A DNA stretch of 40,339 nucleotides from a virus: IMG/VR virus record IMGVR_UViG_3300024989_000002. One strand, 5' to 3'. Positions 2,561 through 40,236 of this stretch are shown here, piece by piece. Within the stretch, counting starts at the first letter, position 1, and each line of letters starts with the position of its first letter. Position numbers and translations under genes: made by a program. The notes below the pieces were generated by a model that was not told the origin of the DNA, did no database searches, and saw nothing but the letters and a program-made list of their open reading frames with translations.

Positions 2561-3816
2561 CCATCCCCGCCATCAAGGGGTTCAACCCCGACCTGACTTG
2601 CCGCGGATTCCAGTTCGCGGAAGGGAAGTCGTTCACGCACGACGGGCCGGTCCGCGTGTGCAGCTCCGGGTTCCACGCGGTGACGATGCCGCTGGATGTT
2701 CTCCGCTACTACCCGCCGAACAAGTCCGTCTACCACCAGGTCGAACTCGAAGACGTGCAGACCCACTCGGAGGACTCTAAGGTCGCGGGCAAGACGATCC
2801 GCATCGGTGCGCGGATCGAGTTGCCCGCGTTGATCAAGGCGCAGATCGAGTTCGTCTTCAAGAACTCGAAGAAGGTCGACGGCGCTTCGTCGACGGAGGC
2901 GCGCACTCAGGTCGGCACTGACATCGAGCACGGTGCGGCGACGGTGTCCGGGTACTCCGGTGCGGCGACGGCGTCCGGGGACTACGGTGCGGCGACGGCG
3001 TCCGGGCGCTACGGTGCGGCGACGGCGTCCGGGTACTCCGGTGCGGCGACGGTGTCCGGGGAGCACGGTGCGGCGACGGCGTCCGGGGAGCACGGTGCGG
3101 CGACGGCGTCCGGGGAGCACGGTGCGGCGACGGCGTCCGGGGACTACGGTGCGGCGACGGCGTCCGGGCGCTACGGTGCGGCGACGGCGTCCGGGTACTC
3201 CGGTGCGGCGACGGCGTCCGGGGACTCCGGTGCGGCGACGGCGTCCGGGTACTACGGTGCGGCGACGGCGTCCGGGTACTACGGTGCGGCGACGGCGTCC
3301 GGGGACTCCGGTGCGGCGACGGCGTCCGGGTACTCCGGTGCGGCGACGGCGTCCGGGGACTACGGTGCGGCGACGGCGTCCGGGTACTACGGTGCGGCGA
3401 CGGCGTCCGGGGACTCCGGTGCGGCGACGGCGTCCGGGGACTCCGGTGCGGCGACGGCGTCCGGGTACTACGGTGCGGCGACGGCGTCCGGGCGCTACGG
3501 TGCGGCGACGGCGTCCGGGTACTACGGTGCGGCGACGGCGTCCGGGGACTACGGTGCGGCGACGGCGTCCGGGGACTCCGGTGCGGCGACGGCGTCCGGG
3601 TACTACGGTGCGGCGACGGCGTCCGGGGAGAAGTCCGTTGCCCTGGCCAGCGGCTACGACGGACGTGCGCGCGGAGCTATCGGTACCGCCCTCTTCCTCA
3701 CTGAGCGCTCGTCGGACTGGACCATCATCGCGGCGGCCGGCGTCGTCGTCGATGGTGCGGCCATCAAGGCCGACACGTGGTACTCGCTGCGTGGCGGGAA
3801 GGTCGTGGCGTCGTGA
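2557..3816 (+). CDS. Tandem-repeat protein: Cys-containing N-terminal domain + (GAATASGxx)x26 + short C-terminal domain, 419 aa
   Basis: This is the only frame with non-repeat flanks of normal composition. N-terminus: IKGFNPDLTCRGFQFAEGKSFTHDGPVRVCSSGFHAVTMPLDVLRYYPP. From memory, I believe this N-terminal module occurs in a widespread phage/prophage family of unknown function that also carries SG-rich repeats; this is not verified. ATGA coupling upstream and GTGA coupling downstream. Confidence 0.8.
   Translation: MTIPAIKGFNPDLTCRGFQFAEGKSFTHDGPVRVCSSGFHAVTMPLDVLRYYPPNKSVYHQVELEDVQTHSEDSKVAGKTIRIGARIELPALIKAQIEFVFKNSKKVDGASSTEARTQVGTDIEHGAATVSGYSGAATASGDYGAATASGRYGAATASGYSGAATVSGEHGAATASGEHGAATASGEHGAATASGDYGAATASGRYGAATASGYSGAATASGDSGAATASGYYGAATASGYYGAATASGDSGAATASGYSGAATASGDYGAATASGYYGAATASGDSGAATASGDSGAATASGYYGAATASGRYGAATASGYYGAATASGDYGAATASGDSGAATASGYYGAATASGEKSVALASGYDGRARGAIGTALFLTERSSDWTIIAAAGVVVDGAAIKADTWYSLRGGKVVAS
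2932..3633 (+). repeat. 26 head-to-tail copies of a 27-bp unit
   Basis: The backbone ggtgcggcgacggcgtccggg is identical in 24 of 26 units; two units carry one c>t change (A>V). The last 6 nt vary only among gac/tac/cgc/gag followed by tac/tcc/cac/aag. Confidence 0.97.
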
Positions 3817-15563: not shown

Positions 15564-15819
15564 GCCGATCAATCTGCGGGTGCCGAAGTCGATGCATCCC
15601 GACGATGTCGTGTGGGCGTTCCGCTACGGCGTGGCGTGGGCACGGTACTCGGTACTGGGTGACGCGTCAGCGATCCGCCGTCACGGCCTCGCCTACACGA
15701 ACCACTACCGCAACGTCCACGCACTCGCTGACAGGGTGCGCGTCGCCGCGATCCGTCGCCTCCGCGATCGCGTGGCTCAGCAACCGACCGATCCGTCACC
15801 CACAGAGGAGACCCGATGA
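15556..15819 (+). CDS. Hypothetical protein, 87 aa
   Basis: Normal composition. The C-terminus ...TDPSPTEETR is encoded by junction repeat C. Confidence 0.55.
   Translation: MPEPINLRVPKSMHPDDVVWAFRYGVAWARYSVLGDASAIRRHGLAYTNHYRNVHALADRVRVAAIRRLRDRVAQQPTDPSPTEETR
15785..15801 (+). repeat. Junction repeat C (17 bp, identical to 14644-14660)
   Basis: cgaccgatccgtcaccc, read in the same frame (TDPSP) as in repeat B. Confidence 0.9.
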
Positions 15820-15866
15820 GTTCCCAGCCGAAGGAGTGGGTGACGGTCGCCGAGGCCGCGGGCTAG
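15816..15866 (+). pseudogene. 16-codon remnant of an excisionase-type HTH gene
   Basis: AGAGGAG then ATG (ATGA-coupled). The product MSSQPKEWVTVAEAAG ends at a stop, and WVTVAEAAG parallels YVPIGQAAG at the start of the HTH in 16123-16350. Its TAG shares the palindrome CTAG with the stop of the convergent minus-strand gene. Confidence 0.45.
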
Positions 15867-16087
15867 TCCGACGACTTCAGGGAGATCTGGATGCCGCGCG
15901 GCGAGAGTCCCGTGATCTCGCCGGCGCGCACCCAGGTCACCCCGGATCCGAGCGCCTGACGCAGGACGTGGTTGCGGTACTGGCGCTGCTGTTTCGTGCG
16001 CTGCTCTAGCTCCTCGAGCTTGGCCTGCGCGGCTGCCAGATCGTCTTCCACGGCCACACGGAGAACTCTACCTGGGTAGAGCAACAC
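15863..16087 (-). CDS. Reverse-oriented small protein, 74 aa or shorter: coiled-coil N-terminus plus a possible C-terminal HTH
   Basis: This is the only minus-strand gene inside the 37-kb plus-strand block. Sequence AAAQAKLEELEQRTKQQRQYRNHVLRQALGSGVTWVRAGEITGLSPRGIQISLK. GTG starts are possible at 16087, 16057 and 16051. Confidence 0.55.
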   Translation of the reverse strand: MLLYPGRVLRVAVEDDLAAAQAKLEELEQRTKQQRQYRNHVLRQALGSGVTWVRAGEITGLSPRGIQISLKSSD

Positions 16088-16088
16088 C

Positions 16089-16108
16089 CGCTATACTTTG
16101 GTATAGCG
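16089..16108. promoter_or_regulatory. Perfect palindrome CGCTATAC-TTTG-GTATAGCG between the divergent genes
   Basis: 8-bp arms, AT-rich, containing TATACT (16092-16097). It lies 15 nt upstream of the ATG at 16123, with GGAGGGG in between. Confidence 0.5.
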
Positions 16109-16122
16109 ATGGAGGGGAACAG

Positions 16123-16350
16123 ATGGTCGAGTACTACGAGGTCGCACCCCCCGGCTACGTCCCGATCGGGCAGGCAGCCGGCACCGTGAACCGCAGCACC
16201 CGCACCATCTACGAGTGGGTCCGCTCCGAAGGCGTCCGCACGTTCAAACGCTCCAACGAACCAGCCCTCGTGAACCTCGACGACGTCCTCCGCGTCGAGA
16301 GCGTCCGCCAGAACGGCCGACGCCGGAAACCACGACCCCCACACGCGTGA
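16123..16350 (+). CDS. Excisionase-type HTH DNA-binding protein, 75 aa
   Basis: YVPIGQAAGTVNRSTRTIYEWVRSEGVRTFK is an HTH_17-like pattern, followed by a basic tail. Confidence 0.7.
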   Translation: MVEYYEVAPPGYVPIGQAAGTVNRSTRTIYEWVRSEGVRTFKRSNEPALVNLDDVLRVESVRQNGRRRKPRPPHA

Positions 16351-16482
16351 CACGCCGCCCGCCTACTTGACACTAAGCCGCACTGGCTGCAATCTGACCG
16401 AGATGGTGGCGAACTACGCCCACCGAACACACTCAGCCCCGGCCCTGACCACAGGTAAACCGGGGCTTCGTCGTACCATCCC

Positions 16483-16555
16483 GCGTTCGTAGCTCAACAG
16501 GCAGAGCACCGACCTCCCACGTCGGGGGTTGCGAGTTCGAACCTCGCCGAACGCT
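16483..16555 (+). tRNA. tRNA-Gly (anticodon CCC), 73 nt, no encoded CCA
   Basis: Folded by hand. Acceptor stem GCGTTCG/CGAACGC (7 of 7 pairs). D arm GCTC-AACAGGCA-GAGC. Anticodon arm CCGAC-CTCCCAC-GTCGG with U33 and A37. Variable loop GGGTT. T arm GCGAG-TTCGAAC-CTCGC. Discriminator U. Confidence 0.9.
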
Positions 16556-16633
16556 CACACCACGTCACCCGCTGACCGCGCATCACGCGCCAACCCTGAA
16601 CGTGGCCTGGCGCCACCGAAGAGGTGAACCACC

Positions 16634-17170
16634 ATGGCCACACGCGCCCGTCGTGCACATCGACCAGTCGAAGCCCTTACGCGCGAGAAGATCCAGGAGG
16701 CGGCTCGGGACGGCTCGCGTAGCCGTAACTCCATCGCCCGCGAGTTCAGCGTCTCAGGTGAGACGGTGACGCGGATCTGCGCGGAGGCGGGCATCACCTT
16801 CGACCGGTCGAAGACCGAAGCCGCGGTGCGGGCTCACGCGCTGGACATCGCTGCTGAGCAGCAGACGCTCCTGCGGATGATGGTCGCTGAGGTGCAGGAA
16901 GAGCTCGACCTGCTGAACGCCCCGTACCTCGTGTGGTCGTTCGGGGGCATGGATGGCGAGATCCATTCGCACCTCCTCGACGCTGCCCCAATGGACGTCC
17001 GCAACATGGCGATCCGTTCCGCGGCGACCGTCGTGGACAAGGTGGCGCGTCACCTCGGGACGACTCCGGAGGGTGCGGCCGCAGCGGAGTCGGTGCTGGA
17101 CCGTATCGAGGCGGAGTTCGACGGCGAGTTCGCCGAGGCGGACGACACCGAGTTCGGCGGCGTGGGGTGA
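16634..17170 (+). CDS. Terminase small subunit (N-terminal HTH), 178 aa
   Basis: Lies directly upstream of and is coupled (GTGA) to the large terminase gene. It has the HTH SRNSIAREFSVSGETVTRICAEAGI and an acidic C-terminus. Confidence 0.75.
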   Translation: MATRARRAHRPVEALTREKIQEAARDGSRSRNSIAREFSVSGETVTRICAEAGITFDRSKTEAAVRAHALDIAAEQQTLLRMMVAEVQEELDLLNAPYLVWSFGGMDGEIHSHLLDAAPMDVRNMAIRSAATVVDKVARHLGTTPEGAAAAESVLDRIEAEFDGEFAEADDTEFGGVG

Positions 17171-39014: not shown

Positions 39015-39176
39015 ATGATTCCGATCGAAGATCTGACGGCCGAGCAGGAGGCGCTCAAGGAACCCACCATCGACTTGGCGGCGCGCGCGCTGCTCGACGC
39101 ACGCGACGAGATCGCGGCAAGGGAGAGCGACGCTAGCGGGCATCGATCCGAGCCATCGCATCAGCGGCATCCTTAA
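39015..39176 (+). CDS. Possible small protein, 53 aa, convergent with the integrase gene and overlapping its 3' end by 44 nt
   Basis: Not in the track. By hand count GC3 is about 82 percent and GC2 about 44 percent over 39 codons. The sequence MIPIEDLTAEQEALKEPTIDLAARALLDARDEIAARESDA... is plausible, but the RBS is weak. Confidence 0.35.
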   Translation: MIPIEDLTAEQEALKEPTIDLAARALLDARDEIAARESDASGHRSEPSHQRHP

Positions 39177-40236
39177 GCGCTTCCGGCATCAGGTGACCGT
39201 AGATCTGGGTGGTCGTCTGCACGGACTCGTGCCCAAGCCGGCGGGAAACGACGAAGATCGGCACGCCCTCCTGCAGCAGCCACGACGCGTGGGTGTGCCG
39301 TAGGTCGTGCGGCCGCGGCTCCTTCCGCAGCTTCGAGGCGTCGACGGCGTCCTGCCAGCCGTGGTTGTGGAAGGTGGTGTTGGTGAGCTGCGACCCCAGC
39401 GTGTTCGGGAACACCAGATCGTGCTGGCGATTGGCGGCAACGAGATCCGCGGCGAGTCCCGGCGTGATCGACACATCTCGGTCGCTCGGCGTGTTCTTCG
39501 TCGAGCCGATGAAGAACTTCCGGTGCGCGTCACCCTTCCACGCCTTGTCGACCTGGATGTAGGGAACGTCAGCGTCGAGGTGCAGATCATCCCAGGTCAG
39601 CGCTGTCGCCTCACTGAAGCGCATTCCGGTGCCGACGAGAACTCGCGTGAGCATCTGGTGTCGCTGGGGGATGTGCTCAAGGAGCGTGTCGAACTCAGCC
39701 TTCGTGAGGAAGGTGGCGCGCCGTCCGGCTCGATCCTCGTTCGGCAGTTCCACGAGCTCGCAGGGATTGTCGCCTCGCCACCCCCTCCTTACCGCGGTCT
39801 TGAACGCGCTCGAGAGCAGGCCCATACGATTCGCGATCGACTTCCGCGTCGCCCCGTCGCGCCGCTGCCGCTGGATCCATGCCGCTATGTGCTCGTCGGT
39901 GACCACGTCGACGCGCAACCCACCGAGCTGCTCGGTGAAGTGCGTCGCGATCATCGAGCGGTAGCCGGCAATCGTGCCCTCGTTCGCCCGGGTGAGCAGC
40001 GACAGGTGCCGCTCGAGCATCTCGCTGACGGTCGGCTTGCGACTCGCCGCGGCGGTGAGCATCTGTTCGGCCAAGGCGAACCTCTGGTCGTTGGCGTCCA
40101 GCAACCGGCGCAGCATCTCCGCCTCACCCTCAGTGGGGAACGTCATGCTCGTCTGGCGCCCAGACTCCGGGTCACGCCACAGCACAGCGAACGACGCCGC
40201 ACCCGTCTTCTGGACCCGCTTCCGAACGCTCGCCAT
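39133..40236 (-). CDS. int: Tyrosine integrase, 367 aa
   Basis: SAM-like N-terminal domain. Catalytic pattern GMRFSEA (R) ... HDLRHTHAS (H-x-x-R) ... LGHESVQTTTQIYGHL (Y). It lies adjacent to the tRNA-derived att core. Confidence 0.95.
   Translation of the reverse strand: MASVRKRVQKTGAASFAVLWRDPESGRQTSMTFPTEGEAEMLRRLLDANDQRFALAEQMLTAAASRKPTVSEMLERHLSLLTRANEGTIAGYRSMIATHFTEQLGGLRVDVVTDEHIAAWIQRQRRDGATRKSIANRMGLLSSAFKTAVRRGWRGDNPCELVELPNEDRAGRRATFLTKAEFDTLLEHIPQRHQMLTRVLVGTGMRFSEATALTWDDLHLDADVPYIQVDKAWKGDAHRKFFIGSTKNTPSDRDVSITPGLAADLVAANRQHDLVFPNTLGSQLTNTTFHNHGWQDAVDASKLRKEPRPHDLRHTHASWLLQEGVPIFVVSRRLGHESVQTTTQIYGHLMPEALKDAADAMARIDAR

Follow-up and report, generated by a model that had tools for sequence, protein, structure and literature searches.

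A small reverse gene and paired dyads as a candidate regulatory block at the early/late junction of a Microbacterium-type temperate phage

Genes and Ends of the Block

The DNA analyzed here, hereafter the window, is the 40,339-nt stretch of the IMG/VR virus record IMGVR_UViG_3300024989_000002. It is a temperate siphophage-like element of the Microbacterium type, with a base composition of 68% G+C. At the junction between its early and its late genes lies a compact block (15775–16474) that contains, from left to right, a 16-codon remnant of a helix-turn-helix (HTH) gene of the HTH_17 type, a reverse gene encoding a protein of 64 amino acids (aa), a divergent region with two dyads that we named O1 and O2, a 75-aa Xis-like HTH_17 gene, and a GC-rich hairpin (table 1). 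An earlier reading of the same DNA by a model, referred to below as the original prediction, had described a reverse-oriented cassette inserted into a truncated HTH gene. According to sequence comparisons, the known relatives are Microbacterium prophages, such as that of M. resistens (L006), and metagenome contigs; related loci are designated below by L numbers. In every relative found, the reverse gene and the dyads lie at the same early/late junction; at least 12 related prophages have the gene, always in reverse orientation with the early genes on one side and terS on the other. Contigs encoding the 64-aa protein reach 503 kb, which indicates that integrated copies of the element exist in bacterial genomes. 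The gene was absent from all 50,697 sequenced phage records searched, and sequenced phages likewise gave no DNA or protein match to the region or to two distant members of the family.

Table 1. Positions of the features of the block, followed by those of its surroundings, in the window
Feature	Position	Strand	Remarks
Left end of the 700-bp block	15775–15815	plus	C-terminal tail of the upstream gene, junction module with ribosome binding site (RBS), ATGA overlap
16-codon remnant, MSSQPKEWVTVAEAAG then stop	15816–15866	plus	Read directly; ancestral ~70-aa Xis-like HTH_17 gene
CTAG of two convergent stops	15863–15866		Module boundary; candidate insertion point of an insertion sequence (IS) in other samples
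64-aa gene, GTG start at 16057	15863–16057	minus	Long helix + HTH; proposed regulator
Candidate −10 TAGAGT of the 64-aa gene	16065–16070	minus	7 nt before the start; inferred
Dyad O1, CTCTAC-CTGG-GTAGAG	16066–16081		Missed in the original prediction
Dyad O2, CTATAC-TTTG-GTATAG	16091–16106		Core of the 16089–16108 palindrome
75-aa Xis-like HTH_17 gene	16123–16350	plus	Full-length copy of the block
GC-rich hairpin, AGCCCCGG...CCGGGGCT	16435–16467	plus	Likely terminator closing the block
CI-like HTH_3 gene	353–691	minus	Divergent from the Cro-like gene
Cro-like gene	679–912	plus	Strand by divergence from the CI-like gene; the CI/Cro-like pair spans 353–912
tRNA-Gly(CCC)	16483–16556
terS	16634–17170
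Tyrosine integrase	39133–40236	minus	Phage_integrase match, E = 1.5e-30

The start codon of the remnant overlaps the stop of the upstream gene (TGA, 15817–15819) and is preceded at 6 nt by GAGGAG, while its TAG (15864–15866) shares the CTAG with the stop of the minus-strand gene (15863–15865). On rereading the DNA, we found this ATGA-coupled 16-codon open reading frame (ORF) with its good RBS, the common CTAG, and the 75-aa gene exactly where the original prediction had placed them. The short ORF had also been thought to parallel the beginning of the HTH gene, and this homology is real: intact ~70-aa HTH_17 genes share its 5' DNA. By means of a degenerate DNA pattern for the remnant, we located two contigs with intact homologues of 70–71 aa, L019 (476–691; the protein opens with MPEPKEWVTVKEAAVLAGKKPRTIYEWIEDDRL) and L020 (1052–1264; the protein contains KPKEWVTVREAALIAGKSPRTIYVWIEQDRL). 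Positions 15823–15859 are 86% identical over 37 nt to the 5' end of the 70-aa gene of L020 (E = 1e-6), and the L019 protein, with 28.3 bits, passes the Pfam HTH_17 cut-off of 27. Both intact genes lie ~1 kb upstream of terS, the terminase genes being related to those of the window, and there is no 64-aa gene near either of them. Because these contigs hold uninterrupted versions with the same 5' DNA, as had been expected of related phages, the ORF at 15816 is a truncated HTH gene. In the whole window, a profile built from the HTH_17 relatives matched only the remnant and the 75-aa gene.

The remnant ends with EAAG and a stop in the window and in L001, and with EAAS and a stop in L004. In L014, it reads EAAA and continues into the reverse gene. 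A longer version in L003, ending with EAAFLADRSMLCT and a stop, is coupled to an extra 130-aa gene, the L017 version has decayed (EPADELVTVG and a stop), and a shorter one in L044 (MAEMREWIT) is abutted by a different small reverse gene. We rejected the idea that the remnant belongs to a split or recoded gene, the downstream 75-aa gene being a complete homologue with its own N-terminus. The similarity of the remnant between the window and L003 is above that of the third codon positions of the neighboring gene, which is not so between the window and L014. We did not retain selection on the remnant itself, which is too short for a decision; repeated recombination within the island explains the similarity equally well. 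Three metagenome contigs (L011, L012, and L013) match the window at 100% identity, starting exactly at 15863 and extending rightward, and diverge fully to the left. On the far side of this point, L011 and L013 have a DDE_Tnp_1 transposase gene, which suggests that, in contigs of this type, an IS inserted at the CTAG of the two stop codons.

The limits of the block emerge from comparisons between relatives. L001 is 97% identical to the window exactly over 15775–16474; no relationship remains further left, and identity is 87% in the terminase region. Between L019 and the L003 contig, ~80% identity begins ~45 nt upstream of terS and continues rightward; ahead of this stretch, only the 46-nt island of the remnant is common to both. 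These comparisons define a mobile unit that runs from the junction module before the remnant to just past the hairpin, so that, judging from the alignments, 15775–16474 moves as a 700-bp mosaic unit. The claim that a cassette replaced the 3' part of an ancestral HTH gene is borne out by the intact genes of L019 and L020 and by the discreteness of the block. However, the replacement is neither private to the window nor recent; by the same comparisons, with one junction in every relative, the event is old and a feature of the whole phage group. The hairpin after the HTH gene is present in all relatives examined (L002, L003, L014, L019, L020, and L044); in L014, compensatory substitutions turned a G-C pair into C-G. 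This conserved terminator-like structure stands between the 75-aa gene and the tRNA gene and terS.

The Reverse Gene and the Divergent Region

The reverse gene had been described as encoding 74 aa and as separated from the HTH gene by a 35-bp spacer. The gene is real and its stop is the one given, but its length is almost certainly 64 aa: 14 of 15 homologues were called at this length and align from the GTG codon at 16057, the remaining one being called at 75 aa. As the gene starts there, the divergent spacer is 65 bp long; the perfect palindrome noted before, CGCTATAC-TTTG-GTATAGCG (16089–16108), is present, and the spacer contains a second dyad. The G+C content of the 64-aa gene at the first, second, and third codon positions is 0.73, 0.44, and 0.83, and divergence among homologues amounts to about 0.2, 0.15, and 0.45, respectively, the third position diverging about three times as much as the second. 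This pattern indicates that the gene is translated and under purifying selection. Its description as the sole reverse gene within ~37 kb also withstood a codon-position GC screen of 912–39133, where the other minus-strand candidates overlap stronger plus-strand frames.

The alignment of the 15 homologues has 35 invariant columns, among them the predicted recognition helix (SPRGIQIS), which is invariant across close homologues. The AlphaFold2 model (mean predicted local distance difference test score, pLDDT, of 88.6) is all-helical, without any strand; a 36-residue helix (residues 2–37) is followed by helices 42–49 and 53–61, which form a predicted HTH. Structure searches with this model matched DNA-binding HTH domains only, and the closest viral models are 65- to 86-aa actinophage proteins labeled HTH or "sigma factor" (template modeling score, TM, of 0.77–0.86). 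An Arc/Mnt ribbon-helix-helix identity was discarded, the model lacking the required N-terminal beta strand. The protein had no match in Pfam, NCBIfam, or PDB sequences, including the Cro/C1-type HTH families (HTH_3 and relatives), unlike the CI- and Cro-like genes of the window, which match the Cro/C1-type family. It did not reach Pfam DUF6003 either, scoring 18.2 bits against a cut-off of 35.4 with only the C-terminal third of the profile aligned. A profile search of 1.8 billion representatives revealed a wider family of 56- to 89-aa proteins, present in 13 of 301 sampled Microbacteriaceae genomes; the long multi-repeat proteins also retrieved were dismissed as noise from a GxTW (BNR-like) motif. 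An imperfect hairpin within the HTH-coding part of the gene (15883–15939, 20 predicted pairs) is conserved. We did not retain it as a conserved RNA, as a single pair covaries and the covariation term is unfavorable; conservation of the protein sequence probably accounts for it.

The two dyads share the form CTNTAC-N4-GTANAG and their centers are 25 bp apart. With at most one mismatch allowed, this form has no match in the 40 kb other than O1 and O2; ~0.1 would be expected by chance, and two matches occurred in none of 100 shuffled sequences. There is no such dyad in the CI/Cro region (353–912). Among the fetched loci, exactly two dyads 25 bp apart lie beside the gene in 20 of the 22 with a close homologue, and L041 and L042 have one exact dyad and a one-base variant of O1; the dyads are absent from all 23 without a close homologue. 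Across 12 loci, the layout in the sense of the gene is fixed: O2, 9 bp, O1, 6–7 nt, and the start codon. The proximal half of O1 contains TAGAGT, a good actinobacterial −10, which in 12 of 12 loci is followed after 6–7 nt by ATG or GTG. As no Shine–Dalgarno sequence follows TAGAGT, a leaderless mRNA is suggested, which probably begins with the start codon itself. Read in the opposite direction (GTAGAGC), the distal half of O1 is a poor −10 and is nevertheless conserved in 10 of the 12 loci; the need for a promoter alone therefore does not explain the symmetry. O2 overlaps two candidate rightward −10 elements, TATACT (16092–16097) and TATAGC (16102–16107). When the rightward gene has a Shine–Dalgarno leader, the left half of O2 reads TATACT; when it is leaderless, the right half reads TA(T/A)AGT, 6–7 nt before the start codon. 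These two promoter arrangements separate cleanly among the loci (n = 12).

To the right of the dyads, the 75-aa protein is the product of the only full HTH_17-like ORF of the window and aligns with the L019, L020, and L002 proteins. Its PHROG matches are weak (MerR-like, E = 4.5e-4; excisionase, 0.019). The predicted model (pLDDT 79.5) shows a strand, two helices, strands, and a helix in this order, a winged-helix fold of the Xis/MerR N-terminal type, and its best PDB match is Xis of mycobacteriophage Pukovnik (4j2n; E = 5e-3, probability 1.0). We call the protein Xis-like because of this actinophage match, because the element encodes a tyrosine integrase, and because there is no other HTH_17-like ORF; its role would be that of an excisionase. 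The window does not include the attachment sites. The closest relative of the protein, from L044, is 69% identical and is encoded after a T5orf172 gene. Homology between the window and L044 starts at codon 4–5 of the HTH gene, the first four codons (16123–16134) not being homologous, and the leader of the window gene resembles the T5orf172 leaders of relatives. A deletion that took out the nuclease gene may have left 16123–16134 as its scar; for an in-frame loss of T5orf172 from the window, the comparison is suggestive, not demonstrative.

In the relatives, the usual rightward unit consists of a 150- to 200-aa gene with a zinc ribbon and a T5orf172/MUG113 domain and of an HTH_17 gene, followed by terS and terL. 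A T5orf172 gene was called beside the 64-aa gene in L002, L003, L014–L017, L040, L041, L043, L044, and L045, with MUG113/T5orf172 family matches recorded for L002, L015–L017, and L043–L045; there is none in the block of the window and of L001. The description as a two-gene cassette fits the window, but this is a reduced form of what most relatives carry. T5orf172 genes have been described as homing endonuclease genes of the GIY-YIG type with zinc-finger DNA-binding modules, whose most frequent locations are next to terminase genes and at recombination boundaries (Barth et al. 2023, PMC10448857). The locus analyzed here likewise has a mosaic breakpoint next to an essential gene, and the alleles free of the island (L019 and L020) carry an intact HTH_17 gene. 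Four relatives have an ORFan after the 64-aa gene on the same strand (L002, 6302–6490; L015, 3714–4313; L042, 1913–2338; L043, 2729–3175). These ORFans encode 62–199 aa, one being a predicted membrane protein, and are cargo-like, placed as if on the promoter of the 64-aa gene; they had no family or defense match.

The profile search also returned three proteins (P0016, P0035, and P0056) with an N-terminal GIY-YIG nuclease domain fused to the long-helix and HTH domain of the 64-aa protein, and the recognition helix of P0016 is the same as that of the 64-aa protein. Distant members of the family differ in their recognition helix and in their dyads, which keep the 6-4-6 design. Directly upstream of the L032 member, GCTACA-N4-TGTAGC is present in three copies; TACTAG-CGCG-CTAGTA occupies the same place in L031, and GGTAAC-N4-GTTACC precedes a positional analogue in L044, a putative member of the family. 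Four helix/dyad classes can be distinguished in this small sample. The distant members adjoin integrase, HTH_17, or ParB-like genes in integrative elements. That helix and dyad co-vary across the classes is the best available support for the binding of these dyads by the family.

A Candidate Local Switch and Its Alternatives

We consider it probable that 15775–16474 is a self-contained regulatory block at the early/late junction, in which the 64-aa protein binds O1 and O2 as a dimer and acts as a local switch. The dimer would occupy both dyads of the 65-bp divergent region as putative operators. Assuming a transcription start at 16057, the center of O1 would be at about −16.5, over the −10 of the gene itself, and its occupation would lead to autorepression. 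O2 would cover the rightward −10, allowing the 64-aa protein to repress the promoter of the Xis-like gene. Seen from the leftward start, O2 would be at about −41.5, from where a bound dimer might stimulate the promoter of its own gene, as does lambda CI at OR; the arrangement would be mirrored for a rightward start located after O2. The rightward unit would consist of the 75-aa gene and end at the hairpin, the T5orf172 homing-endonuclease-like gene coming first in most relatives. In the lysogen, the regulator would hold this unit silent. Upon induction, transcription of the early operon would proceed antisense through the 64-aa gene, lower the amount of regulator, and open the unit. We favor the 64-aa protein as the binder because its helix is invariant and the half-sites are conserved, whereas its HTH_17 neighbors have diverged and T5orf172 is absent from the window. 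Taken as a whole, the interpretation of the original prediction is partly supported. Among the functions put forward there, a local regulatory switch fits the anatomy best; the regulated gene, from its modeled fold, looks more like an excisionase than a controller of late genes.

Several observations weigh against this proposal. The fold-search E-values of the 64-aa protein are weak (0.075 or worse), owing to the tiny size of the query, and the 75-aa protein scores 13 bits against Pfam HTH_17, under the cut-off of 27. The rightward −10 of the window itself is ambiguous (TATACT or TATAGC), and the symmetry of O2 could partly derive from back-to-back promoters, since GTAnAG holds TAnAGT. The 25 bp between their centers place the two sites on different helix faces, an arrangement that does not favor simple cooperative binding. 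No evident terminator separates the early operon from the block; early read-through may therefore express the HTH gene regardless of the regulator.

Two small DNA-binding genes divergent across common dyads could also constitute a two-player switch of the P2 C/Cox or the CI/Cro type. In such a bistable toggle, the HTH_17 protein would bind the dyads as well and shut off the 64-aa gene; alternatively, it would be the sole binder. P2 Cox is among the weaker fold matches of the HTH_17 model, and the distant member of L033, located in an integrative element, likewise diverges from an HTH_17 gene. We nevertheless regard this possibility as unlikely, as relatives with the same dyads have HTH_17 proteins of only ~18–27% identity to that of the window and the first rightward gene of most relatives is T5orf172 and not an HTH gene. 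Little credence is also given to dyads that serve mainly as back-to-back promoters or as a DNA hairpin, with the 64-aa protein acting elsewhere; it might, for example, pair with RNA polymerase in the manner of sigma region 4 or be a DNA-targeting or silencing partner of the T5orf172 nuclease. It is true that the half-sites hold outward-reading TAnAGT hexamers, that the best viral fold matches include Microbacterium phage proteins annotated as "RNA polymerase sigma factor", and that the three fusions link a GIY-YIG nuclease domain to a domain of the 64-aa type. However, the distal half of O1 is kept despite being a poor −10, both dyads have one geometry and one consensus, helix and dyad change together in the distant members, and the dyads of the window are unchanged despite the absence of T5orf172.

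The reverse orientation of the 64-aa gene with its own promoter, and the cargo-like same-strand ORFans of L002, L015, L042, and L043, would be expected of a moron, or of a small defense, anti-defense, or toxin–antitoxin pair expressed from the prophage, for which the place before terS would be incidental. We judge this highly improbable. Neither the two window proteins nor the cargo ORFs have a meaningful PADLOC or Pfam defense match, both window proteins are predicted DNA binders without a toxin-like partner, and the position is constant across all relatives. The suggestion of a defense or anti-defense pair in the original prediction found no support, PADLOC giving only marginal and unrelated matches (E = 0.003–0.007).

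We put forward, as a speculative and somewhat unlikely possibility, that it is a reduced homing-endonuclease island with its own silencer: a T5orf172 nuclease would repeatedly have captured the 5' end of an excisionase-like gene before terS, and the operators of the regulator would be the target in a conflict between prophages. Such captures would have been independent, since the window and L044 have two unrelated small reverse regulators at truncation points that differ by a few codons. As for the 64-aa protein, it would be a nuclease-type DNA-binding module existing on its own that keeps the island quiet in lysogens; precedents for a nuclease module of this kind in the role of repressor are I-TevI, through its autorepression, and CapR. 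When fused to GIY-YIG, as in P0016, P0035, and P0056, the module would aim the nuclease at the operator dyads of rival prophages.

As in lambda CI at OR1–OR3 (PRM/PR), a short divergent region contains several related dyads for a small HTH protein, here presumed dimeric, with one site over the −10 of the regulator itself and another near −42, a geometry of self-repression and self-activation. The present system differs by its unrelated protein family, without HTH_3 or Cro/C1 match, by its two sites instead of three, and by its apparently leaderless mRNA. As a separate CI/Cro-like pair is located at 353–912, the block is not the immunity region. In this respect it resembles immI of P22 (Mnt, Arc, Pant/Pmnt), a second autonomous repressor–operator unit outside the main immunity region, where a small repressor is divergent from genes silenced in the lysogen. 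However, Mnt and Arc are ribbon-helix-helix proteins, in contrast to the all-helical HTH predicted here, and their target is an antirepressor, where here it would be a Xis-like gene and/or a nuclease. The C-Cox (CI-Apl) systems of P2 and 186 similarly oppose a small repressor to a protein of the excisionase type with a second role in regulation, and the predicted fold of the 75-aa protein is of the Xis/Cox/MerR winged-helix kind. Those are main lysis–lysogeny switches with face-to-face promoters, whereas the promoters here are divergent and the switch would be secondary, just before the packaging genes.

The likeness to T5orf172 islands (PMC10448857) lies in the zinc-ribbon and T5orf172 gene that opens the rightward unit of most relatives, next to the terminase genes and at a mosaic breakpoint, in the intact target-region gene kept by the island-free alleles L019 and L020, and in the fusion of the 64-aa domain to GIY-YIG. 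It differs in that the window has no T5orf172 gene and that the actinobacterial genes are putative homing endonuclease genes. A resemblance to antitermination of the AlpA/Q type (PMC7969949, PMC9371919) is by position only, as a ~70-aa winged-helix gene is followed by a promoter-like element, a terminator-like hairpin, and late genes. Here, the promoter is weakly supported, the best fold match is an excisionase and not AlpA, and no binding element was identified.

The 64-aa protein belongs to an uncharacterized family, whose job looks familiar and whose place is unusual. The regulation of temperate actinobacterial phages other than mycobacteriophages has been little studied. If the proposed switch is correct, the 64-residue protein and the two dyads of its 65-bp control region would constitute a small, easily testable repressor–operator pair, gating an excisionase-like gene apart from the main immunity switch. 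The locus would also be a clean example of a mosaic block that landed inside a gene and left a readable remnant. A further use of the protein and its dyads could be as a compact regulatory element in high-GC Gram-positive hosts. Through the connection with T5orf172 and GIY-YIG nucleases, homing-type elements of actinobacterial prophages become open to study; this relation to homing-endonuclease islands, together with the GIY-YIG fusions sharing the same DNA-binding domain, is in our view the part most worth pursuing.

Phage Setting and Further Observations

After the Cro-like gene, the window carries a long stretch of plus-strand early genes, followed by the late part in the order small and large terminase, portal, structural, and lysis genes. 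The tRNA-Gly(CCC) gene between the hairpin and terS does not belong to the 700-bp mosaic block. A scan of six relatives revealed no tRNA gene in this slot, which several relatives fill with reverse-oriented ORFan genes. Between the HTH gene and the hairpin, a promoter-like element (16367–16405) consists of TTGACA, a 17-nt spacer, CAATCT, 7 nt, and ATG; its −10 is poorly conserved in relatives. It is followed by a conserved core, AGATGGTGG...CGCCCA, and then by the GC-rich hairpin. This succession of a promoter-like element, a short transcript, a terminator, and the tRNA gene and terS recalls a late promoter under antitermination control.

Some relatives show further rearrangements of the module. 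A frameshifted copy of a GIY-YIG fusion lies on the reverse strand upstream of terS in L024, a second M. resistens prophage located on the same contig as the dyad-bearing prophage L006. In L004 and L030, the module has decayed; the 64-aa gene is frameshifted, and a 167-aa ORF fuses HTH_17 to T5orf172. The region looks like a prophage remnant, and a neighboring 394-aa ORF has an N-terminus that appears TIR-like by eye. L044 and L045 carry two other small reverse genes of the long-helix and HTH type (2280–2535 and 3316–3600). The gene at the junction, overlooked by gene callers, has the dyads GGTAAC-CCAC-GTTACC and GGAAAC-CAGA-GTTACC, and the second reverse gene lies after the hairpin with TCTAC-TTA-GTAGA upstream.

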